Notes under the pieces: generated by a model
What the model was told of the DNA's origin: nothing
The model's database searches: none
The model's input: the letters and a program-made list of their open reading frames with translations, nothing else
Origin: Methanotrichaceae archaeon
GTDB taxonomy: Archaea; Halobacteriota; Methanosarcinia; Methanotrichales; Methanotrichaceae
DNA length: 26,677 nt
Assembly: GCA_963748825.1 (NCBI GenBank)
Contig: CAVVKN010000001.1
Coordinates: 1-26,677 of the forward strand
Reading direction: 5' to 3'
Made by a program: the position numbers and the translations under genes
Part shown: piece after piece, positions 573 through 10,655 of the stretch
Numbering within the stretch: position 1 is the stretch's first letter
Layout of the letters: each line of letters begins with the position of its first letter

Positions 573-3053
573 TTGAAGTACACAGGCACTGACACACTCA
601 CGCTCAATATTCCGGATGCAGTGCCAGCCGATGCAGGGACTTACAGACTGAAAGCAACCTGTTCAGGAACGCAATGTACAGGTGTAGCCGACGCAGTTCT
701 ATCGATCACATCTCCGGTTGTATCTGCAACAGGCACTGCGGTCTGCGCGGGCAATACGGCTCATCTAGTAGGCTCAGTGACGACCTCAAACTGTGCTTCT
801 GGCACCCTGACCTACAGGTGGTACCGAGTAGACGGTTTAGTAGAAATGCCCCTGACAGACGACTTGAAGTACACAGGCACGGGCACACTCACGGTCAATA
901 TCCTGGACGCATTGACCGCCGATGCAGGGACTTACAGACTGAAAGTAACTTGTTCAGAAACGCAATGTACAGGTGTAGCCGACGCAGTTCTGTCGATCGG
1001 ATCACCCGTAGTATCAGCAACCGGCGCTGCAGTCTGCGCAGGCAATACTGCTCATCTAGTTGGTTTAGTAACGACCGAGAACTGTGCTGCTGGCAGCACC
1101 CTGACCTACAAGTGGTACCGAGTAGACGGTTTAGTAGAAACACCCCTGACAGACGACTTGAAGTACACAGGCACTGACACACTCACGCTCAATATTCTGA
1201 ACGCAGTGGCAGCCGATGCAGGGACTTACAGACTGAAAGTAACCTGTTCTGGAACGCAGTGTACAGGTGTAGCCGACGCAATTCTGTCGGTCAACCAGTC
1301 TCCGGTTGTCTCAGCAACCGGCGCTGCAGTCTGCGCAGGCAATGCTGCTCATCTAGTTGGCTCAGTGACGACCTCGAACTGTGCTGCTGGCACCCTGACC
1401 TACAAGTGGTACCGAGTAGATGGTTTAGTAGAAATGCCCCTGACAGATGACTTGAAGTACACAGGCACTGACACACTCACGCTCAATATTCTGAATGCAG
1501 TGGCAGCCGATGCAGGGACTTACAGACTGAAAGCAACCTGTTCTGGAACGCAGTGTACAGGTGTAGCCGACGCAGTTCTGTCGATCACATCTCCGGTTGT
1601 CTCAGCAACCGGTACTGTAGTCTGCGCAGGCAATACTGCTCATCTAGTAGGCTCAGTGACGACCTCAAACTGTGCTGCTGGCACCCTGACCTACAAGTGG
1701 TACCGAGTAGACGGTTTAGTAGAAACGCCCCTGACAGATGACTTGAAGTACACAGGCACGGGCACACTCACGCTCAATATCCTGGACGCATTGGCAGCCG
1801 ATGCAGGGACTTACAGACTGAAAGTAACTTGTTCAGAAACGCAATGTACAGGTGTAGCCGAAGCAGTTCTATCGATAGGATCACCCGTAGTATCAGCAAC
1901 CGATGCTGCAGTCTGCGCAGGCAATACTGCTTATCTAGTGGGTTCAGTAACGACCGAGAACTGTGCTGCTGGCAGCACCCTGACCTACAAGTGGTACCGA
2001 GTAGACGGTTTAGCAGAAACCCTCCTGACAAACGACTTGAAGTACACAGGCACTGACACACTCACGCTCAATATTCTGAACGCAGTGGCAGCCGATGCAG
2101 GGACTTACAGACTGAAAGTAACCTGTTCTGGAACGCAGTGTACAGGTGTAGCCGACGCAGTTCTGTCGGTCGGATCTCTTGTTGTCTCAGCAACCGACGC
2201 TACAGTCTGCGCAGGCAATATTGCTCATCTAGTAGGCTCAGTGATGACCTCGAACTGTGCTGCCGGCAGCACTCTGACCTACAAGTGGTATCGAGTAGAG
2301 GGATCTTCTGAAACCTCCCTGACGGATGGCTCGAAGTACACAGATACTAGCACGATTACGCTTAATATTCTGAATGCAGTGCTCGCTGATGCAGGGACTT
2401 ACAGACTGAAAGCAACCTGTTCCGGAACGCAATGTACAGGTGTAGCCGAAGCAGTTCTGTCGGTCAGCCCGTCTCCTGTAGTCTCAGCTATCGGCTCTGC
2501 AGTCTGCGCAGGCAACACTGCTCATCTAGTAGGTTCAGTAACGACCGGGAACTGTGCTGCTGGCACTCTGACCTACAAGTGGTACCGAGTAGAGGCGGCA
2601 TCTGAAATATCCCTGACAGACGACTTGAAGTACACAGGCACTGACACATTCACACTCAATATACTGGATGCAGTGCCAGCCGATGCAGGGACTTACAGAC
2701 TGAAAGTAACTTGTTCAGAAACGCAATGTACAGGTGTAGCCGAAGCAGTTCTGTCGATCGGATCACCCGTAGTATCAGCAACCGATGCTGCAGTCTGCGA
2801 AGGCAATACTGCTCATCTAGTAGGTTCAGTAACGACCGGGAACTGTGCTGCTGGCACTCTGACCTACAAGTGGTATCGAGTAGAGTTGCCTTCTGAAACA
2901 TCCCTGACAGACAGCTCGAAGTACACGGGTACTGGCACAAACATGCTCAATATTCTGAATGCGGTGCCCGCCGATGCAGGGACATACAGACTGAGAGCAA
3001 CCTGTTCCGGAACGCAATGTACAGGTGTAGCCGAAGCAGTTCTTTCAGTCAAC
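421..3053 (+). repeat. Nine tandem coding repeats of 290-297 bp (Ig-like domains)
   Basis: Units begin near 421, 711, 1002, 1299, 1590, 1881, 2175, 2472 and 2763 (S[P/L]VVSA...) and end in TQCTGVA[D/E]A[V/I]LS. Nucleotide identity between units is visibly high. Confidence 0.95.
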
Positions 3054-5756
3054 AAATGCGGATCAATAACCCTTATCGAAACGCCCATCGGAGGCGATGG
3101 CACCTTCGGATTCACGGGCACCGGCTTCCCGGATGGATCTCCCTTGAATTCTCCAAGTCTCGGGCCGGATGCGTACAGCACTGAGCGCATAGGGCTCCTG
3201 GCAGGCAAGGATTACATAATATGCCAAACGTCGATGCCTCCTTACTGGTCTCTCGTTAACATCGTTGTTGAGGTTATTGAGGGGACGGCGAATGTTCAGT
3301 ACGGGTCCGACGACAACTGGCATGAAACGTTTGATGATATAACCGGCGACAAGTGCGTCAAGGTCCATATTGATCCCGGCGCGAACGTTAAAGTCACCTT
3401 CATCAACCAAAAGCAAAAGAGCGAAGGAGAAAAACCTGCAATAATACTAGAGTTGAACTTAACCAAGACTGCCCTTAACACCTCCGTTCATAGGGGCGAG
3501 GACATCTACTATGAAATCAAAGTCTGCAATAGCGGCTCCGGTGATCTGACCAATGTTACCGTTTGGGACGTACTGCCTCAGGGAGTGGAACTTATCACCA
3601 CCTATCCGGAAACAGGTTCGAGCCTCTCCTGGGACATTGGCACACTTCCTCCCAACAGTTGCTCACTGGTGCGGGTAGTAGTGCGCGTCCCGATAACGGA
3701 CATCAATTACGACATGACCCAGGGAGTCCAGGGAACGGGCTTCGTTAACGTCCATAACGACTACGACACCCACCAGGGCCCGGAGTCTGTAACCAATTGC
3801 GCCTATGCCAAAGCCGATCTGGTAGAGACCGTATCCTCTTGCGCTTCTACCGGCATCGTTGACCCGAGAACGGAGCTGAAGAGGCGTGAGTTTGGCAGCG
3901 GCACATATGAGAGCGAGGAGCTGACCCGCATCCGCACCGAGAACAAGTCCATCAAGACGGTCACCAACCTTTCTGCTGTGCACCAGCCCACCACCTTCTC
4001 CCTGCCCCAGGGCCGGTCCATCAACTATGGCACCAAATGGACTGAGAAGTCCAAGGGCAGCAACACCATAACCGGTGCATCCATGAACGAGGAGTACACC
4101 TCTGCCACCAAGATCAATAAAGAGAGATCCGTAGAGCTTGACAAGAACGGCTCGATCATGACTACCGAGGTGGAATTCGAAGGCCAGGGCCATATCGGCG
4201 TGCTCAAGAAGGAGAGCCCCGATTCCCATCCCAAGGTCAAGACGATCTTCGAATCCCGGGAGGACTACGCGGGCAATTTCAAGATCTATGAGAAGGTGGA
4301 TGAGTACGGCACCAGCGTAGTCTCGAACAAATCAACTTCGGGATTCGGCTACGTAGCCGTGGACAAGAAGATCCGGGACAGCCAGAGGACCTATGAGTCG
4401 GGCACGGGCTCTTACCAGAGCGAAGAGCTGATCGATACCCCGACCAGCTACATGGCAAAGAATATCAGCCTGGTCCATGCACCCGCCAGCTATAGTTACT
4501 CTCCGAGCTTCCGGGCCGATCAAGACATGAAGTGGAGTGAAGGCATGTGGTCCAAGAGCGGCGGCCTCTGTGGCGGGAATCTCATTACAGACATCGGTCC
4601 ATCCCGTCAGCTCGCTGCCTCCAGCTGCCTGGCCAATGGCACATCCCCGGGAACACTGATCAGCGAGAAGTACTCGTATCTCGACAACCTGCAGAAAGAG
4701 ACAGTGTTATCGGGCCTGAACGAGATGAAGACTGAGGCCAGCTTCAGTGGCATGGCTGACTACAGAGTCCTATCGCATGGCACGAATGGCACGGACGTGG
4801 TGGACAATGAGGAGCGCTATGTGGGCAGCTATGACATCAATAGGCATGTCCTCCTGACAGGCACCTCGAAGTACGACATACCCCACCTGACGGTTATCAA
4901 GGAAGGCCGAATCAAGAATGAGTGGTACAACAAGACTAATGCCACGCAGGCCGAGTACACCATAACGATAACCAATGACGGCAATCGTGCCCTTGCCCCT
5001 ATCTACGTAAGGGATCTCTTCCCGGCAGGCACACAATACGTAAAGTCGACCATAAGGCCTGCCAGTCTCACTGCTAGTGAAGTCAACTGGACTCTGATTC
5101 ACCTGGGCATAGGCAACACAATAACAATAGGCCTTACGCTAAACGTAACCGAAGGCGCTCCGGGAAATAACTTAGTCAACCGTGTTGTAGCATGCGGAAT
5201 GTCTGGTGATAAATCCGTGTGTGCCGGAAACTACTCTTCCCTGGAGTTCGGCTGGCTGACCTGCTGTCCACCAGAGGTTCTGGTCTCAAAGAAGGCATGG
5301 CTGGATGAGGCCGATCCTACCGTAGTCCACTATCGCATCATAGTGGATAACAAAGCGCCGGATAGCGTAGCAGTGACTGTGACAGATCAGCTAACCGGTG
5401 GCATGAAGCTGATGGGCGCATCCGTTGTGCCCAATTCATACGATGCCAACCAGATCGTATGGGCTTTGCCGGAGATCAAGCCTGGACGTTATGAGATCAT
5501 AGACTACGCGGCAAGGGTTTTGCGGGATGGAGGCTACACCAGCACCGTTCATATCGATGCCACGGCCATTAACGGCACGGGCTACGATACAATGGATGCG
5601 GCAGCCTACATCGAGGTCACGCGCACCGGTGTCGCGCCCAAGACGTTCAGATACGGCAGCTGGGAGCCGCCCGCCTGGAACCTGAGCGCGCCGGAACCGG
5701 GTTTGAACACGGACCCTGAATTGGAATTGGACGTGGAATCTGGAATTGAGGGCTGA
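573..5756 (+). CDS. Giant cell-surface protein with tandem Ig-like repeats and three DUF11 (conserved repeat domain)-like domains; true start lies upstream of the window
   Basis: 1727-aa ORF. Repeats carry the Ig strand motifs TLTYKWYR and DAGTYRL. DUF11-like motifs: LTKTA...IYYEIKVCNSGSGDLTNVTVWDVLPQGVEL (~3453), EYTITITNDGNRALAPIYVRDLFPAG (~4950), VHYRIIVDN...VTVTDQLTGGM (~5325). Many N-x-S/T sequons. The TTG at 573 lies inside a repeat, so it is not the real start. Confidence 0.9.
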   Translation: MKYTGTDTLTLNIPDAVPADAGTYRLKATCSGTQCTGVADAVLSITSPVVSATGTAVCAGNTAHLVGSVTTSNCASGTLTYRWYRVDGLVEMPLTDDLKYTGTGTLTVNILDALTADAGTYRLKVTCSETQCTGVADAVLSIGSPVVSATGAAVCAGNTAHLVGLVTTENCAAGSTLTYKWYRVDGLVETPLTDDLKYTGTDTLTLNILNAVAADAGTYRLKVTCSGTQCTGVADAILSVNQSPVVSATGAAVCAGNAAHLVGSVTTSNCAAGTLTYKWYRVDGLVEMPLTDDLKYTGTDTLTLNILNAVAADAGTYRLKATCSGTQCTGVADAVLSITSPVVSATGTVVCAGNTAHLVGSVTTSNCAAGTLTYKWYRVDGLVETPLTDDLKYTGTGTLTLNILDALAADAGTYRLKVTCSETQCTGVAEAVLSIGSPVVSATDAAVCAGNTAYLVGSVTTENCAAGSTLTYKWYRVDGLAETLLTNDLKYTGTDTLTLNILNAVAADAGTYRLKVTCSGTQCTGVADAVLSVGSLVVSATDATVCAGNIAHLVGSVMTSNCAAGSTLTYKWYRVEGSSETSLTDGSKYTDTSTITLNILNAVLADAGTYRLKATCSGTQCTGVAEAVLSVSPSPVVSAIGSAVCAGNTAHLVGSVTTGNCAAGTLTYKWYRVEAASEISLTDDLKYTGTDTFTLNILDAVPADAGTYRLKVTCSETQCTGVAEAVLSIGSPVVSATDAAVCEGNTAHLVGSVTTGNCAAGTLTYKWYRVELPSETSLTDSSKYTGTGTNMLNILNAVPADAGTYRLRATCSGTQCTGVAEAVLSVNKCGSITLIETPIGGDGTFGFTGTGFPDGSPLNSPSLGPDAYSTERIGLLAGKDYIICQTSMPPYWSLVNIVVEVIEGTANVQYGSDDNWHETFDDITGDKCVKVHIDPGANVKVTFINQKQKSEGEKPAIILELNLTKTALNTSVHRGEDIYYEIKVCNSGSGDLTNVTVWDVLPQGVELITTYPETGSSLSWDIGTLPPNSCSLVRVVVRVPITDINYDMTQGVQGTGFVNVHNDYDTHQGPESVTNCAYAKADLVETVSSCASTGIVDPRTELKRREFGSGTYESEELTRIRTENKSIKTVTNLSAVHQPTTFSLPQGRSINYGTKWTEKSKGSNTITGASMNEEYTSATKINKERSVELDKNGSIMTTEVEFEGQGHIGVLKKESPDSHPKVKTIFESREDYAGNFKIYEKVDEYGTSVVSNKSTSGFGYVAVDKKIRDSQRTYESGTGSYQSEELIDTPTSYMAKNISLVHAPASYSYSPSFRADQDMKWSEGMWSKSGGLCGGNLITDIGPSRQLAASSCLANGTSPGTLISEKYSYLDNLQKETVLSGLNEMKTEASFSGMADYRVLSHGTNGTDVVDNEERYVGSYDINRHVLLTGTSKYDIPHLTVIKEGRIKNEWYNKTNATQAEYTITITNDGNRALAPIYVRDLFPAGTQYVKSTIRPASLTASEVNWTLIHLGIGNTITIGLTLNVTEGAPGNNLVNRVVACGMSGDKSVCAGNYSSLEFGWLTCCPPEVLVSKKAWLDEADPTVVHYRIIVDNKAPDSVAVTVTDQLTGGMKLMGASVVPNSYDANQIVWALPEIKPGRYEIIDYAARVLRDGGYTSTVHIDATAINGTGYDTMDAAAYIEVTRTGVAPKTFRYGSWEPPAWNLSAPEPGLNTDPELELDVESGIEG

Positions 5757-5796: not shown

Positions 5797-5850
5797 GCAT
5801 TTATCCTTAATTTTTAATATAACAATGCTTAAATTAAGATTATATTATTC

Positions 5851-5925
5851 CTTATGTTATAGCTAAATCAAAGGACATTTCTTATGTAATCAAGCAACAA
5901 GACTATAAATGGCAGTTACATAAGA
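5851..5925 (+). promoter_or_regulatory. TATA box flanked by a repeated CTTATGT(A/T)A motif; putative operator of the DUF6788-znu operon
   Basis: TATAAA at 5904-5909, purine-rich upstream, ~25 bp before TTG 5933. TCTTATGTAA (5880-5889) and TTACATAAGA (5916-5925) form a perfect 10-bp inverted repeat around it. A third direct copy, CTTATGTTAT, is at 5851-5860. Confidence 0.65.
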
Positions 5926-5932
5926 GGCGTTC

Positions 5933-6259
5933 TTGATACCCAAAACCATCATTCACTCACTGGAGCAGCAGGATCTCTCCGTGCTTTGCGAGATAAAGGA
6001 CCTCGTCGAGCGCCTCATCTTGGAAAGAAGCAAACCTCCCCTGCCAGATGAGCTGCCAGGCGACAGGGAGGTGTTAGATGTGCAGACGACCGGGTCGACT
6101 ACCTATCGTCTGGAGAAGGTCTCTTGCGGCAAGAACTGTAAAGGCTGTCCGCACGGTCCCTACTGGTACGGCTACTGGCGAGAGGGCGGCAAAACGCACT
6201 CCAAATACATCGGCAAGAATCTGAAGTCCTCAGAAACCAAAAAAGGTGTAGTAGTATGA
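5933..6259 (+). CDS. Small Cys/His protein, DUF6788-like; putative zinc-binding DNA-binding protein
   Basis: Motif CGKNCKGCPHGPYWYGYWREGGKTHSKYIGK. Helical N-terminus. Stop overlaps the next start (ATGA 6256-6259). TTG start placed as expected for a leaderless mRNA. Confidence 0.75.
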   Translation: MIPKTIIHSLEQQDLSVLCEIKDLVERLILERSKPPLPDELPGDREVLDVQTTGSTTYRLEKVSCGKNCKGCPHGPYWYGYWREGGKTHSKYIGKNLKSSETKKGVVV

Positions 6260-7143
6260 TCGGAAAAATTAATAAAAATAATATCTCTATATTGGCTTTA
6301 CTGCTGGCGGCGACCATACTCTCCGGCTGCGTCTCGCAAGATGAGTCCTCTCTTGCCGCTCCTTCCGGCAATGCTTCCGACAGGATCAAGGTGGCCACAA
6401 CCATAGCTCCTCTGGGCGACTTTGTTAAGGCGGTGGGCGGCGAGAAGGTCAAGGTCACTGTGGTAGTTCCGCCGGGAGCCGAGCCCCATACATTTGAGCC
6501 CACGCCATCTCTGATGATGAATATGGCCAGAGCCGATCTATATGTTATGAATGGGGCGGGTCTCGAATTCTGGATGGACAAGCTGCTGCAGGCCAATAAA
6601 GAGATGATAGTAGTAGACTCTTCTCAGGGCATTGACTTGCTGCAAGAGAGCGAGGATGAGATAGATCCGCACATCTGGCTTTCTCTGCGAAATGCCGCTG
6701 TGCAAGTCAATAACATCTGCTCCGGCCTGATAGAAGTCGATCCCCAAAATAGTGATTTTTATATCAAAAACCGAGATGATTATTTGGGCAAGCTTAAAGC
6801 TCTGGACGAAGAACTGAACCAGACCTTTGCCGGCAAAAAAAACAAGATCTTCATAGTGCAGCACCCCGCCTGGACCTACTTCGCTAGGGATTATGACCTC
6901 AGCCAGGTGTCGCTCATGGAAGGCGCGAAGGAGCCTGGCCCCAAGTACCTGGGAGTGGTTATCGAACTGGCCCGAAAGAATAATATAACTGCCATCTTTG
7001 TAGAGCCGCAGTTCAATCCCAAGTCTGCGGAGGTCATCGGTCGGGAGATGAATGCCAGCATCATAGCCCTTGATCCGCTGGCGGGAAATTATCTGGAAAA
7101 TATGAAATATGCGAGCCGGGAGATTGCCCAGAGCCAAACATGA
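6256..7143 (+). CDS. znuA: Zn/Mn ABC transporter substrate-binding lipoprotein (cluster A-I)
   Basis: Lipobox ILSGC; motifs PPGAEPHTFEPTP, DPHIWLS and HPAWTYFARDY; followed by ATPase and permease genes. Metal specificity is not proven. Confidence 0.92.
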   Translation: MIGKINKNNISILALLLAATILSGCVSQDESSLAAPSGNASDRIKVATTIAPLGDFVKAVGGEKVKVTVVVPPGAEPHTFEPTPSLMMNMARADLYVMNGAGLEFWMDKLLQANKEMIVVDSSQGIDLLQESEDEIDPHIWLSLRNAAVQVNNICSGLIEVDPQNSDFYIKNRDDYLGKLKALDEELNQTFAGKKNKIFIVQHPAWTYFARDYDLSQVSLMEGAKEPGPKYLGVVIELARKNNITAIFVEPQFNPKSAEVIGREMNASIIALDPLAGNYLENMKYASREIAQSQT

Positions 7144-7901
7144 CGGGGAAGATTGTATCCATCAGCGACCTTTGGGTCAGCCGGGCAGAGCACGTCGTCC
7201 TTGAGAACATAAATCTGGAGCTTTGTGCCGCGGACTTTCTCGGCCTTATTGGCCCCAACGGCGGCGGCAAATCCACTCTGCTGAAAGTAATGCTGGGCTT
7301 GATCAAGCCCAATCGAGGCAGCATTGCCATTTTTGGGCTGCCGCCCGCGGCGGCACGCAGCCGCGTTGGCTACATGCCCCAGAAGACCGTCTTCGACCAG
7401 AGCTTTCCTGTCAAGGTGCTGGATGTGGTGCTCATGGGAAGATACAGTCGCTCCGGGCTCCTGCATCGTTACAGTAGCCAGGACCGCAAGGCTGCCCTTG
7501 GAGCGCTGAAGGCCGTGGGAATGGATGATCGAGCAGAGCGCGAGATCGGTGCTCTCTCGGGAGGAGAGCAGCAGAGGGTCTTTGTAGCCCGCTCATTAGT
7601 CTCCGATCCTGAGCTGCTCCTCCTGGATGAGCCCACTGCAGGAGTTGATTCCGCACAGCAGACGGAGTTTTACGATCTGCTCTGTCACCTGAATCGCGAT
7701 CTTCACATCGCCATTGTGCTGGTCTCGCATGATGTCACCGCCATCTCCAAGTACGTGAACAAGATCGCCTGCTTAAACCAGCGGCTTTATTATCACGACT
7801 CCAAGGAACTCTCCAATGAGGACATCGAAAAGGCCTACGGCTGCCCGGTGGAGATGATAGCGCACGGCACGCCCCATCGGGTCTTGAGGGAACATGATTG
7901 A
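7140..7901 (+). CDS. znuC: Zn/Mn ABC transporter ATP-binding protein
   Basis: Walker A GPNGGGKST, signature LSGGEQQR, Walker B LLLLDEP, switch VSHD; ATGA overlap with znuA. Confidence 0.93.
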   Translation: MTGKIVSISDLWVSRAEHVVLENINLELCAADFLGLIGPNGGGKSTLLKVMLGLIKPNRGSIAIFGLPPAAARSRVGYMPQKTVFDQSFPVKVLDVVLMGRYSRSGLLHRYSSQDRKAALGALKAVGMDDRAEREIGALSGGEQQRVFVARSLVSDPELLLLDEPTAGVDSAQQTEFYDLLCHLNRDLHIAIVLVSHDVTAISKYVNKIACLNQRLYYHDSKELSNEDIEKAYGCPVEMIAHGTPHRVLREHD

Positions 7902-8694
7902 TTTGGATTTTCTCCAGTACGACTTCATGAGAAATGCCCTGGCTGCGGGCCTGGCCGCCTCGGTGCTCTGCGGCGTAATTGGAATATATGTAATTTTAAA
8001 TAAAATCGTATTCATCAGCGACGGTATCGCTCATGCAGCCTTCGGCGGCATTGGTCTTGGTTACTTCCTGGGTTACGATCCGCTGGCCTTCGGAATTGGA
8101 TCGGCCGTTTTAACCGCTCTCGGTATAGGCATGGTCAGCTCCCGGGCGCGTGTCTCGGAGGACACGGCCATTGGCGTCTTCATGGCTACCGGCATGGCTT
8201 TAGGAATAATGCTCCTTACTCTTTCCCAGGGCTATGCCAGAGACCTTTACGGCTACCTGTTCGGAAATATTTTGGCCGTGACGAGAGGCGATGTGCTGCT
8301 TATTTCTGCCCTCACATTGATCATCCTGGCTCTCGTCTTTCTGCTCTACAAAGAGTTTCTTCTCCTGAGCTTCGATCCTGTCTACGCAGAAGCCATAGGC
8401 CTTCCCGTGCAAAGCCTTCGTCTCTTGCTCCTGTCTATGGTGGCCTTTAGCGTGGTCATTCTCATCAAAATCGTGGGGATAATCATGGTCATAGCGCTTC
8501 TGACCATTCCCGGCGCTATAAGCCGGCGGCACCTGAAGGGTCTGCCCGTTATCATGGCCGGCTCCATATTCCTGGGCGCGATCTTTGTAACCATAGGGCT
8601 CTTGATATCTTATGAGCTGGATGTTCCCTCCGGAGCGACCATAATTCTGACGGCTGCCGTTGCCTTTTTCCTGAGCACCATGCTTTCCAGATAG
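7894..8694 (+). CDS. znuB: Zn/Mn ABC transporter permease (ABC-3 family)
   Basis: Hydrophobic multi-TM protein; motifs DGIAHAAFGG, EDTAIG, YLFGNIL and PSGATII. Confidence 0.93.
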   Translation: MIDLDFLQYDFMRNALAAGLAASVLCGVIGIYVILNKIVFISDGIAHAAFGGIGLGYFLGYDPLAFGIGSAVLTALGIGMVSSRARVSEDTAIGVFMATGMALGIMLLTLSQGYARDLYGYLFGNILAVTRGDVLLISALTLIILALVFLLYKEFLLLSFDPVYAEAIGLPVQSLRLLLLSMVAFSVVILIKIVGIIMVIALLTIPGAISRRHLKGLPVIMAGSIFLGAIFVTIGLLISYELDVPSGATIILTAAVAFFLSTMLSR

Positions 8695-8733: not shown

Positions 8734-9726
8734 ATGAAGCTCCTGCATGTCATCAGCATTCTGCTTCTTCTTGCCGGGGCGGGCCAGGCAGAAGATCTCA
8801 TATTTTTCGCAGATGATCACTACAAATCCCTGGGCCGGCCAGAGCTTACAGCCTCTGTGGCCAATCCGGCTTTAGTCCCTGGCGACAGTATCCTGCGAAT
8901 AAACCTGGCTAATTTAGGCGAGCTGGAAGAGCTGATGCCCATCAACGAGAGCGGCTCAAATGAAGATATATTGCTGGAGATGAGCGCGGAAATGCATAGC
9001 ATTGATGCCCTGAACATCAATGCCGCCCTGACGGGAGCTGGACCCATAAAGGTGAAAACAGGGCCGCAGCATATCAAGCAGCACATCAAGAATCTTCCCG
9101 CAGGAGCTGCGGCAGTGCTGCAGTTTAATATCACCGCACAGAAGAATGCAAGCGGCTGGTATGCCCTTCCCTTGAGCGTCGATTATGAGAGGCAGGTGGA
9201 TGTGAGCGTGAAGAGCGGCGAGGTCTTTCCCCTCTATGAAGCGGAAAGGCAAAACCTCACTATTCAAGTATTTGTGGCTGGAAATAATGAGCTTTTGCGC
9301 ATTTCCGGGACTAAGTCCGAGCTCTATGCGGGGGGAAGCGGAAATCTGAGGGCGGCGATCAGCAATGATGGCGCCATTTTGCTTCATAATTGCTCGGCCA
9401 AGCTCCTGGCTGCTCCTCCCTTCTACGTAGAAAGCCCGGCTATTGAGCTGGGAGACTTGGCCCCTGGATCGTTGGCTGTAATCGCATTCACAGTGCGCGT
9501 AGATGGAAATGCCGGCCTGCAGGATTACCAACTGGGCTGTGAGATTGATTGCCAAGAGAAAAGCATAATTGTCCCCCTGCAAATCTCTCTCTCTCGCGTC
9601 GGGGTTTTAGGAAACTTTGCAGGTCCGGTATTGGGGGGCCTGGCTATAGCTGGCCTGGCAGCTTTTCTGATATGGAAAAAAAGGGATCAACTCTTCCGTC
9701 GCAAGAGAAGATGGCGGCAAAAATGA
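8734..9726 (+). CDS. COG1361-like S-layer/Ig-domain protein with signal peptide and C-terminal membrane anchor
   Basis: Signal peptide MKLLHVISILLLLAGAGQA; beta-rich GWYALPLSVDYE and LGDLAPGS segments; C-terminal TM helix followed by the basic tail KKRDQLFRRKRRWRQK. Confidence 0.75.
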   Translation: MKLLHVISILLLLAGAGQAEDLIFFADDHYKSLGRPELTASVANPALVPGDSILRINLANLGELEELMPINESGSNEDILLEMSAEMHSIDALNINAALTGAGPIKVKTGPQHIKQHIKNLPAGAAAVLQFNITAQKNASGWYALPLSVDYERQVDVSVKSGEVFPLYEAERQNLTIQVFVAGNNELLRISGTKSELYAGGSGNLRAAISNDGAILLHNCSAKLLAAPPFYVESPAIELGDLAPGSLAVIAFTVRVDGNAGLQDYQLGCEIDCQEKSIIVPLQISLSRVGVLGNFAGPVLGGLAIAGLAAFLIWKKRDQLFRRKRRWRQK

Positions 9727-10655
9727 CAGAAAAATCGGTCGAAGCTAAGGGAATTTATAAGAGTTATAAGAGCTTCTTGGGGAGCAGCACCACAGTTCTT
9801 CAGAACATATCCCTGGATATCGAGGCGGGAGAGATCTTCGGTCTGCTCGGCCCTAACGGTTCAGGCAAGACCACTCTCATCTCCATATTCTCCACTCTGA
9901 TCTATCCGGAGCAGGGCAGTCTGCTCATCCTGGGAATGGATGCGCGCCGCGACAAAGGAGAAATCCGCAAAGCCATTAATATCAGTACGGCCAAGCCCAA
10001 CTTCCCCTGGAGCTTGACTGTGCAAGAGAACCTGCGTCACTACGGCATGCTCTACGGCCTTTACGGTTCACTCCTCTCCCGGACGGTAGAAGATCAGATC
10101 GAAGCCTTTGAGCTAGGCGAGTTTCGGGATATGAAGTTCGAGAACCTCTCCACGGGCTTAAAGCAGCGTCTCTCTCTGGCCAAGGCCATGCTCAATCGCC
10201 CTCGTCTGCTGTTCCTAGATGAGCCCACCACGGGTCTTGATCCTGATATCTCCATAAAAACCCGCATGCTGATAAAGAGAATTCATGAGGAGGAGAACAT
10301 CTCCGTGGTTTTATCTACCCACTATATGCCTGAGGCGGAGATGCTCTGTGACAGGATTGCATTTCTGCGCAAGGGTCAGATCGTGGCAATGGACACGCCC
10401 CGCAATCTAAAGAAGCATCTGGGGCTGGGGGAGAGGGTGGTGGTCTCTTACGAAGGGCCGGCAGATATCGCGGCCCTGGAGAGCATGGCGGGCGTTTTAG
10501 GCATAAAAGCGGAGAGGGGCCGGGTGGAGATCGTGATCGATAGAAACGAGGATAGTCTAGACAGGATCATCAAGCTCTTTTGCAATGCCAGAATCCTTGA
10601 CTTAACCATAAAAGAACCCGATTTGGAGGATGTATTCCTTGAACTGGCAAGGTGA
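9723..10655 (+). CDS. ABC-2 type exporter ATP-binding protein
   Basis: GPNGSGKTT, LSTGLKQR, LLFLDEPT and C-terminal EPDLEDVFL. Start reassigned to ATG 9723 (ATGA overlap with the upstream stop) from 9549. Confidence 0.9.
   Translation: MTEKSVEAKGIYKSYKSFLGSSTTVLQNISLDIEAGEIFGLLGPNGSGKTTLISIFSTLIYPEQGSLLILGMDARRDKGEIRKAINISTAKPNFPWSLTVQENLRHYGMLYGLYGSLLSRTVEDQIEAFELGEFRDMKFENLSTGLKQRLSLAKAMLNRPRLLFLDEPTTGLDPDISIKTRMLIKRIHEEENISVVLSTHYMPEAEMLCDRIAFLRKGQIVAMDTPRNLKKHLGLGERVVVSYEGPADIAALESMAGVLGIKAERGRVEIVIDRNEDSLDRIIKLFCNARILDLTIKEPDLEDVFLELAR

Follow-up and report, generated by a model that had tools for sequence, protein, structure and literature searches.

What controls the zinc-importer operon of a methanogen of the family Methanotrichaceae? 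The question is raised by a 26,677-nucleotide stretch of DNA from a Methanotrichaceae archaeon (assembly GCA_963748825.1, contig CAVVKN010000001.1, positions 1 to 26,677 of the forward strand), which was analysed at its full length and is called the window here. Its znuACB genes, which encode an ATP-binding cassette (ABC) transporter, are preceded by a small open reading frame (ORF; 5933..6259, + strand) that begins with TTG, is the first gene of the operon and encodes a protein of 108 amino acids (aa); the stop codon of this ORF (TGA, 6257–6259) is shared with the ATG of znuA at 6256 as ATGA. A sequence-only reading had recognised this operon-leading, ATGA-coupled position, which the ORF calls bear out, and had proposed that the protein is a zinc-sensing autorepressor. 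We find an inverted repeat that brackets the TATA-like box of the operon promoter; it exists, is unique in the genome and travels with the protein family across Archaea and Bacteria. From this distribution, the 108-aa protein is most likely a sequence-specific DNA-binding autoregulator that acts as a repressor. That it binds the repeat and autoregulates the operon appears probable to us, while the full proposal, in which it also responds to zinc, falls somewhat short of even likelihood.

The alignments of upstream DNA share one layout, in which TCTTATGTAA(C/T) is followed by a spacer with a purine-rich stretch and a TATA-like box, by GTTACATAAGA and then by the start codon. Of 50 orthologous loci, 47 have the two arms, the left one with no mismatch in 23 and one in 24, and the right one with none in 38, one in 8 and three in a single locus; two of the exceptions lack the left arm (L020 and L029) and the third is cut by a contig end (L024). 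The spacer measures 22–27 nt in 45 of the 47 loci and 44 nt in the other two, and the right arm lies 5–8 nt before the start codon in 46. The rest of the upstream DNA has diverged among the loci, and the repeat is the only conserved promoter element found. Within the 2,883,905-bp genome the exact 10-mer half-site occurs twice, both times at this promoter (about five copies are expected from base composition), and, save for a non-conserved half-site at 5850–5859, no other inverted or everted pair with two or fewer mismatches in total was found genome-wide. Across the family, 67 of 101 genomes contain the pattern CTTATGTAA-N18-48-TTACATAAG; the control with the reversed pattern scored 0 in every row listed. 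The autoregulation suggested by the sequence-only reading thereby acquires a candidate operator, a conserved symmetric site in the gene's own promoter that co-occurs with the gene and appears to track the gene family rather than znu.

The TATA-like box is centred about 26 nt before the start codon. Because this is the usual archaeal distance from box to transcription start, transcription would begin at or next to the start codon, and the operon mRNA probably has little or no leader. Upstream of the left arm the sequence is not conserved and no conserved promoter-like element was seen. An internal promoter for znuA, another point raised by the sequence-only reading, was looked for in 49 loci, and no conserved TATA-like box was seen there: the best match to the TATA consensus upstream of znuA has 3–5 mismatches in 48 of the 49, as compared with 1–3 in 45 of 49 at the operon promoter. 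A scan for bacterial-type promoters and terminators, which is not applicable to an archaeon, gave nothing above shuffled sequences.

An inverted repeat so close to a gene could also act as RNA, forming a hairpin in the 5′ leader that serves as an attenuator or as a stability or translation element, rather than as a DNA operator. Indeed, the segment 5874–5935 folds at −14.2 kcal/mol (z −3.37, with 0 of 200 shuffles as stable), and the compensatory changes of the arms between subfamilies, described below, would suit a stem as well. Such a stem would, however, straddle the promoter: its loop holds the TATA-like box in Archaea, at a constant distance of some 26 nt from the start codon, and in Anaerolineae a −10 box. 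Nor is anything promoter-like conserved upstream of the left arm, and Rfam gave no match at E ≤ 1. We regard the hairpin as very unlikely and read the repeat as a DNA operator.

The arrangement of gene and importer is stable across the family. The gene was matched in 74 of 101 family genomes, in 14 of 16 genera and in 48 of 64 high-quality genomes, and the neighbours of the fetched loci were located by tblastn. An intact znuA lies directly downstream in 50 of the 55 loci with a full-length copy, so that the synteny with znuACB on which the sequence-only reading hinged holds across the family; the other five are a locus with a znuA remnant (L048), two second copies without znu (L054 and L055) and two loci cut by a contig end (L030 and L070). 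Where the flank permits, the order is znuA, znuC, znuB, a CARDB-like gene and a second ABC ATPase. The start codon occupies the same aligned position in all 50 loci (35 TTG, 8 GTG and 7 ATG), and most of these have an in-frame stop 9 nt upstream; judged from sequence, the gene is real. An available znuA start gives a 4-nt overlap in 29 of the 50 loci and lies 1–4 nt past the stop in 13 more. The C-terminal domain is under strong purifying selection, and synteny is stable over the 14 genera.

Whether the repeat follows the gene or the importer is answered by the loci in which the two are separated. The pattern occurs in 64 of the 74 genomes with a protein match and in 3 of the 27 without one (a comparison made by hand); this co-occurrence alone is trivial, because the site adjoins the gene, and it is the znu-less copies, genus g6 and genome G066 that are informative. 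The second copies without znu, found in one genus, have the same arms directly upstream. In these two loci (L054, G048:C17; L055, G054:C109) promoter and gene are present as a second copy whose C-terminal end has diverged and is probably frameshifted, and in L054 O-methyltransferase-like and PEMT-like genes lie downstream in place of znu; the promoter cassette looks like it has been re-used in this genus. Similarly, in a paralogue (L057; 177–194 aa, depending on the start chosen) the arms flank TATATA, end 7 nt before the ATG and have no znu downstream. The neighbour of this paralogue is a 628-aa ORF with no Pfam match, whose likeness to primases was seen by eye only. In genus g6, all seven genomes have znuACB and no copy of the 108-aa gene, and no half-site with one or no mismatch was found within 500 nt upstream of znuA in any of them. 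Four of the seven g6 upstream regions (L097, L098, L214 and L216) carry a near-perfect palindrome, GGATTCCTGGAATCC, and a conserved AAAATCTGA block, presumably the site of a different regulator. In G066 (L096, G066:C2) the gene has been deleted naturally, leaving the right arm and roughly the first twelve codons fused before znuA, with the left arm decayed.

These loci bear directly on the possibility that another factor, of the DtxR or Fur family or of an unknown one, binds the repeat, with the 108-aa protein acting as a zinc chaperone, a buffer or an accessory of the importer. One Fur-family and one DtxR-family gene are indeed present in the genome, and the 108-aa protein has no fold match to a DNA-binding domain. 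Moreover, MDR1 of Archaeoglobus fulgidus has been described as a DtxR homologue that depends on metal and represses the operon to which it belongs, with the site consensus GTT-N8,9-AAC (PMC3074139). The repeat, for its part, goes with DUF6788 genes in Archaea and Bacteria whatever is downstream and is missing from the gene-less znu operons; it is unique in the genome, unlike the box of a global regulator; and the protein's own domain is basic and occurs fused to LuxR-type helix-turn-helix and HNH domains. Binding by a DtxR homologue is unlikely because the site is unique, does not fit this MDR1 consensus, and follows DUF6788 genes in both domains of life. The sole genome matches to FUR (PF01475) and, on the DtxR side, to PF02742 lie on contigs C23 and C2, outside the window (C1:1-26677), and the genes around the Fur-family member (ThiC, TPR) do not indicate which metal it uses. 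The earlier statement that the window has no Zur/Fur or DtxR regulator is thus upheld for these two families, MarR and AdcR not having been searched for. Likewise, in Pfam the 108-aa protein has no FUR domain at E ≤ 0.1, no DtxR-type helix-turn-helix and no Fe_dep_repr_C domain. Taken as a whole, binding by another factor seems improbable, and the 108-aa protein remains our candidate for the repeat-binding factor.

Loci outside the Methanotrichaceae extend this pattern. A 64-sequence profile found the protein family, patchily distributed, in 22 of 292 genomes sampled from the phylum's other families. With start codons chosen by a simple rule, and a test that demanded perfectly matching inverted arms of 9 nt or more, 15–50 nt apart and ending no more than 10 nt before the start, 9 of the 22 loci pass, compared with 6 of 2851 ORF starts of the window's genome. 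The arms vary jointly by subfamily, the pairs of left and right arm being CCTTATGTAnC with GTTACATAAGG, TCTTACCTAACC with GGTTAGGTAAGA, TCTTACCAAAC with GTTTGGTAAGA, and CCTTATCAAAC with GTTTGATAAGG. Among the neighbours of these archaeal copies are genes for a phage-type integrase, a DDE transposase, ParA-like and Orc-like ATPases, TBP and TrkH.

In Bacteria, one-per-species genomes were scanned with a tighter profile alignment, and the best 80 of more than 600 loci with the HGPYWY[AS]Y core belong to Actinomycetota, Chloroflexota, Cyanobacteria, Acidobacteria and Bipolaricaulota. An inverted CTT[AG][TG]G[TG]...[AC]C[AC][CT]AAG pair is found within 130 nt upstream of the gene in 29 of 78 of these loci; as there are 54 occurrences in all 375,629 nt of the loci, the pattern is strongly concentrated in front of the gene. 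A cruder test with exact 9-mers gave 23 of 78 loci and 41 of 468 control ORFs. The arms flank GGTATAAT, a −10 box, in Anaerolineae and lie 0–10 nt before the start in Actinomycetota. Downstream of the bacterial copies lie genes for phosphoglucomutase (5), PD40 propellers (6), proteins of about 550 aa without a Pfam match (7), GtrA (2) and small zinc ribbons (3). ZnuA is absent next to every out-group copy inspected, in 80 bacterial loci and in 25 archaeal loci outside the family (L102–L126). A column in the last strand of the protein tracks the half-site, Ser occurring with G (..TGT, ..GGT) and Trp with C (..CCT, ..CCA, ..TCA); as the sequences are related, this tracking is suggestive only.

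The sequence-only reading had called the protein DUF6788-like. Its own match to Pfam DUF6788 (PF20586.3) is sub-threshold, at 14.1 bits against a cut-off of 27.2 (E 0.053), and in this part the assignment fell short. It stood by way of the relatives, and we regard homology to DUF6788 as secure on sequence comparison despite the weak score, because at least 120 listed homologues, up to 93% identical, all carry a precomputed PF20586.4 label (of unstated threshold), because relatives found with the 108-aa protein exceed the PF20586 cut-off (P0247 at 56.1, P0136 at 45.7, P0182 at 45.4, P0224 at 40.3 and L057 at 32.9 bits), and because all 30 of 30 ESM-Atlas matches are DUF6788 clusters. NCBIfam gave no match for the protein. 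The homologues come under the source names Methanothrix, Methanosaeta and Methanotrichaceae, which puts the window in this family. The family signature, a Cys cluster followed by HGPYWY and GK...YIGK, is present. Public data contain over 1400 cluster representatives of the DUF6788 domain at 50% identity, and fused forms exist, among them a receiver (REC)-LuxR protein and an HNH nuclease. Some members (P0156, P0136 and P0182) are long proteins in which the domain is repeated, with 12 matched stretches in 805 aa, 3 in 628 aa and 2 in 409 aa. The genome of the window also has weak paralogues (E 0.001 to 0.3) in which the aromatic ...YW..SWRE.GK... stretch is retained and the Cys cluster is missing; one of them (L002, G000:C6:99603-99731; ORF 1309-1689 of the locus) is a coiled-coil-like ORF of 126 aa with two small ORFs next to it.

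A mobile-element origin, which the sequence-only reading had also suggested, is made plausible by a match to the viral family phrog_22659 (E 7.8e-10, function unknown) and by the integrase, transposase, ParA-like and primase-like neighbours in the out-groups; among viral contigs, a single 10-residue match to the 108-aa protein was uninformative. In a stronger form of this idea, the locus would be a relic: the repeat would serve recombination or be a terminal repeat, and the protein, next to znu by chance, would be a partition-type factor or one that sets recombination directionality. Besides the viral match and these neighbours, solitary repeat copies scattered in some genomes would suit such a relic. 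Nonetheless, the stable synteny and purifying selection described above, the fixed position of the repeat relative to TATA-like box and start codon, and the lack of any recombinase adjoining the gene in the window speak against it, and we find a relic of this kind hardly likely at all. The solitary copies themselves are most numerous in G017 (7 away from znu) and G018 (5), with 3 each in G027, G080 and G032 (loci L074–L093 and L208–L211, for instance G017:C2:87143-87188 and G017:C2:88055-88101). They have arms of up to 13 nt (TTTCTTATGTAAC...) and unrelated flanks, and several of their spacers hold a third, direct half-site. Most of their neighbours have no Pfam match; others are D5_N/DUF5906 primase-like, an Eco57I-type methylase, DUF3800 and DUF4258, and an 85-aa ORF, winged-helix-like by eye, begins about 50 nt downstream of one site. 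No zinc-related regulon emerged from the genes near 20 solitary operator-like sites; the extra copies may be a regulon or mobile-element promoters.

At the level of residues, the CxxxCxxCxH cluster and the basic, aromatic stretch that the sequence-only reading had singled out are C65, C69, C72 and H74, followed by YWYGYWREGGKTHSKYIGK. Among 64 diverse sequences C65, C69 and Y92 are invariant, and C72, H74, G75, P76, Y77, W78, Y79, Y81, G86, G94 and K95 are at least 90% conserved. A confident AlphaFold2 model built on the 64-sequence alignment (predicted local distance difference test score, pLDDT, 85.7; predicted template modelling score 0.63) places helices at residues 4–11 and 15–32, consistent with the helical N-terminus read from the sequence, and strands at 46–53, 56–63, 74–84 and 87–94, with a disordered tail. 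The C-terminal half is near-invariant among orthologues and the linker variable, and the isoelectric point (pI) of the sheet domain has a median of 9.56 across 50 orthologues. For the two-helix N-terminal part of the model, a role in dimerisation or signalling is proposed.

Several observations weigh against binding of the repeat by this protein, the sub-threshold Pfam score among them. The genomes of one family are related and do not constitute independent samples. The motif is present without a detected gene in three genomes (G062, G074 and G077), and in some relatives operator-like sites lie away from any family gene (L074–L093). No repeat of the kind sought precedes the gene in 13 of the 22 archaeal and 49 of the 78 bacterial out-group loci, for part of which wrong start calls or diverged sites may account. 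A TTG start on a leaderless mRNA would be inefficient. On the structural side, Foldseek found nothing for the model in the PDB at E ≤ 0.001; the best of about 48,000 chains in VIA-align, a propeller blade at Z 5.1, is not above background; and a search of the viral structures in BFVD gave no match. Superposition on WRKY is weak (VIA-align Z 3.8, root-mean-square deviation 3.4 over 49 residues, rank 44), as are the matches to an AP2 repeat (Foldseek E 0.68, probability 0.25) and to NrdR (E about 1.2). In these searches the predicted model showed no significant likeness to a known DNA-binding fold.

We nevertheless infer that the 108-aa protein is the repeat-binding factor, working as a dimer and as a repressor. 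In the proposed mechanism, the basic four-stranded sheet, held by the Cys3His zinc knuckle, would read the half-site CTTATGTAAC; two such half-sites, inverted relative to each other, lie on either side of the TATA-like box in the one promoter recognised for the operon. Occupied arms would block TBP/TFB or RNA polymerase, and the block would shut off the regulator gene together with the co-transcribed znuACB. If the DNA-binding domain needs zinc to fold, the metallated share of newly made regulator would report the zinc supply: zinc-replete cells would repress the operon, and in zinc-starved cells the apo-protein would not bind, leaving the operon derepressed. The metallated fraction could serve as such a signal because the sole conserved cis-element found in the promoter of a zinc-type importer belongs, on this proposal, to a zinc-folded protein.

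The zinc step is the more doubtful part. The Cys3His cluster is conserved family-wide, including in members that head phosphoglucomutase, PD40-propeller and other non-metal genes, and for this reason it looks structural; it is also why we would bet slightly against, rather than for, a zinc signal. In addition, no extra metal-ligand residue peculiar to the znu-linked clade was seen in the alignment by eye, and the Fur-family and DtxR-family genes elsewhere in the genome count against this step. The protein may then be an autoregulator blind to zinc, which binds the repeat and controls the operon with a purely structural zinc site, and which would either keep expression buffered and homeostatic or respond to another signal by way of the N-terminal helices; any zinc control of uptake would then lie elsewhere. 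The family-wide occurrence of both the Cys3His cluster and the promoter architecture suits such a regulator, as do out-group members that head non-metal genes and, in the loci inspected, never ZnuA, and a znu-linked clade in which no metal ligands of its own were seen. Yet high-affinity zinc importers are normally zinc-repressed, the repeat is the only conserved element found in the promoter of this one across 14 genera, and linkage and translational coupling are kept across the whole family. We give zinc-blind autoregulation a substantial minority chance.

The features of the locus are collected in Table 1. The three importer components, a ZnuA-fold binding protein, an ABC-3 permease and an ABC ATPase, lie in one operon (cluster A-I, ZnuABC-type), and their genes overlap one another by 4 nt and then by 8 nt. 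The solved chains closest to the window ZnuA are Synechocystis ZnuA 2ov1/1pq4 (E 3.8e-54), while Mn and Fe binding proteins match at E 1e-36 or weaker, and three His-containing motifs, which we take to be the metal ligands, align with those of the zinc-specific Synechocystis ZnuA. The NCBIfam equivalogs are all under cut-off for this protein (AztC 154.5 against 350, ZnuA 100.8 against 268 and MntC 144.8 against 400). The CARDB-like gene and the second ABC ATPase come after znuB in most other genera too and may be part of the same transcription unit as znuACB; co-directional ORFs run on to about 13881 (+), and the unit may be longer than znuACB. A contig from an RNA library, about 90% identical, covers 5964–6881 and bridges the junction of the 108-aa gene and znuA, a weak hint that the pair is on one transcript, although such a contig cannot show start, level or strand. 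Directly upstream, at 573–5756 (+), a 1727-aa ORF contains about ten near-identical Cys-rich Ig-like repeats, then DUF11 and other domains; its product is probably a surface protein.

Table 1. Positions of promoter elements, protein regions and genes at the znu locus of the window.
Feature	Position	Strand	Remarks
Extra half-site-like copy CCTTATGTTA, 2 mismatches, not conserved in relatives	5850..5859		Upstream DNA of close relatives differs here
Left operator arm (candidate) TCTTATGTAAT, just upstream of BRE (TFB recognition element)/TATA region	5880..5890		At most 1 mismatch to TCTTATGTAAC in 47/50 orthologous loci
24-nt spacer with purine-rich BRE-like stretch and TATA-like box CTATAAAT (5903-5910)	5891..5914	+	Putative TATA/BRE assignment
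Right operator arm (candidate) GTTACATAAGA, between TATA-like box and start, 7 nt before TTG	5915..5925		47/50 loci
Acidic two-helix N-terminal part, residues 4-32	5942..6028	+	AlphaFold2 helices; pI 4.8 for residues 1-45
Basic four-stranded beta-sheet domain, residues 46-94, proposed DNA-reading part	6068..6214	+	AlphaFold2 strands; pI 9.3
Cys3His knuckle C65-x3-C69-x2-C72-x-H74, loop between strands 2 and 3	6125..6154	+	Putative metal binding
GGTG, Shine-Dalgarno-like, 7 nt before znuA ATG, within 3′ end of 108-aa gene	6245..6248	+	Function presumed from sequence
znuA-type substrate-binding protein	6256..7143	+	PF01297, 260.2 bits
znuC-type ABC ATPase	7140..7901	+	PF00005, 99.3 bits
znuB-type ABC-3 permease	7894..8694	+	PF00950, 254.8 bits
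CARDB-like 330-aa protein, membrane-anchored, and DrrA-like ABC ATPase	8734..10655	+	Downstream of znuB

A comparison with known regulators helps to separate what is familiar from what is new. Zur, of the Fur family, does the same proposed job in Bacteria, as a zinc-loaded repressor of znuACB-type importers with an operator over the core promoter. The 108-aa protein, in contrast, has no Fur domain, differs in size, in predicted fold (two helices and a four-stranded sheet with a Cys3His loop) and in operator, and would be the first gene of its own operon, acting at one genomic site instead of on a regulon. MDR1 is reported to head a metal ABC-transporter operon and to block polymerase recruitment. 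It is a DtxR homologue with a helix-turn-helix, whereas the 108-aa protein has no DtxR domain and its arms lie 24 nt apart around the TATA box. Loz1 of Schizosaccharomyces pombe shows that a zinc-dependent DNA-binding domain can double as the sensor, which is the logic proposed here; Loz1 is, however, a eukaryotic C2H2 finger protein with no relation in sequence or fold and no autoregulatory operon. WRKY, AP2 and integrase arm-type domains, like the NrdR zinc ribbon, likewise read DNA with a small antiparallel sheet, and some of them have a zinc site, but the structural matches to WRKY, AP2 and NrdR are not above unrelated background, and the arrangement of ligands in WRKY differs from four ligands in one loop between strands 2 and 3. 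With DUF6788 (PF20586) and phrog_22659 the protein has in common the core C..C..C.HGPYWY..W.E.GK...YIGK, and many members have the same helix-linker-sheet layout; both families are annotated as of unknown function, and the znu linkage is seen only in Methanotrichaceae. A full-text search, its scope excluding subscription journals and supplementary files, found no paper naming DUF6788, and, judged by titles and the beginnings of abstracts, the literature held nothing relevant on an archaeal zinc-uptake regulator of this kind or on a Methanothrix zinc regulator. The operon-leading autoregulator, possibly metal-responsive, is of a known kind, and what is new is the protein family, the fold and the cross-domain operator.

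More broadly, DUF6788 could be a pan-prokaryotic, hitherto unrecognised class of transcription factors with a new zinc-knuckle beta-sheet fold, in which a CTTAnGTAAC half-site bracketing the TATA or −10 box has been kept across both domains of life; in Methanotrichaceae a cassette, probably derived from a mobile element, would have been captured before znuACB, where its zinc site would now be the cell's zinc sensor, replacing Zur at this operon. We offer this wider picture tentatively, as plausible yet on balance doubtful. The analysis gives an uncharacterised domain both a function that can be tested and an exact target on DNA, and operator and protein are small enough for a compact regulatory part. 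Bacteria and Archaea differ in their basal transcription machineries; if binding is true, DUF6788 would be a new DNA-binding family, and its site, with the layout that brackets the promoter, would be common to both. The locus would then be the control point of high-affinity zinc uptake in Methanothrix, a major acetoclastic methanogen, and, if the zinc step is true as well, a natural case in which a zinc site of structural origin was exapted for metal sensing.

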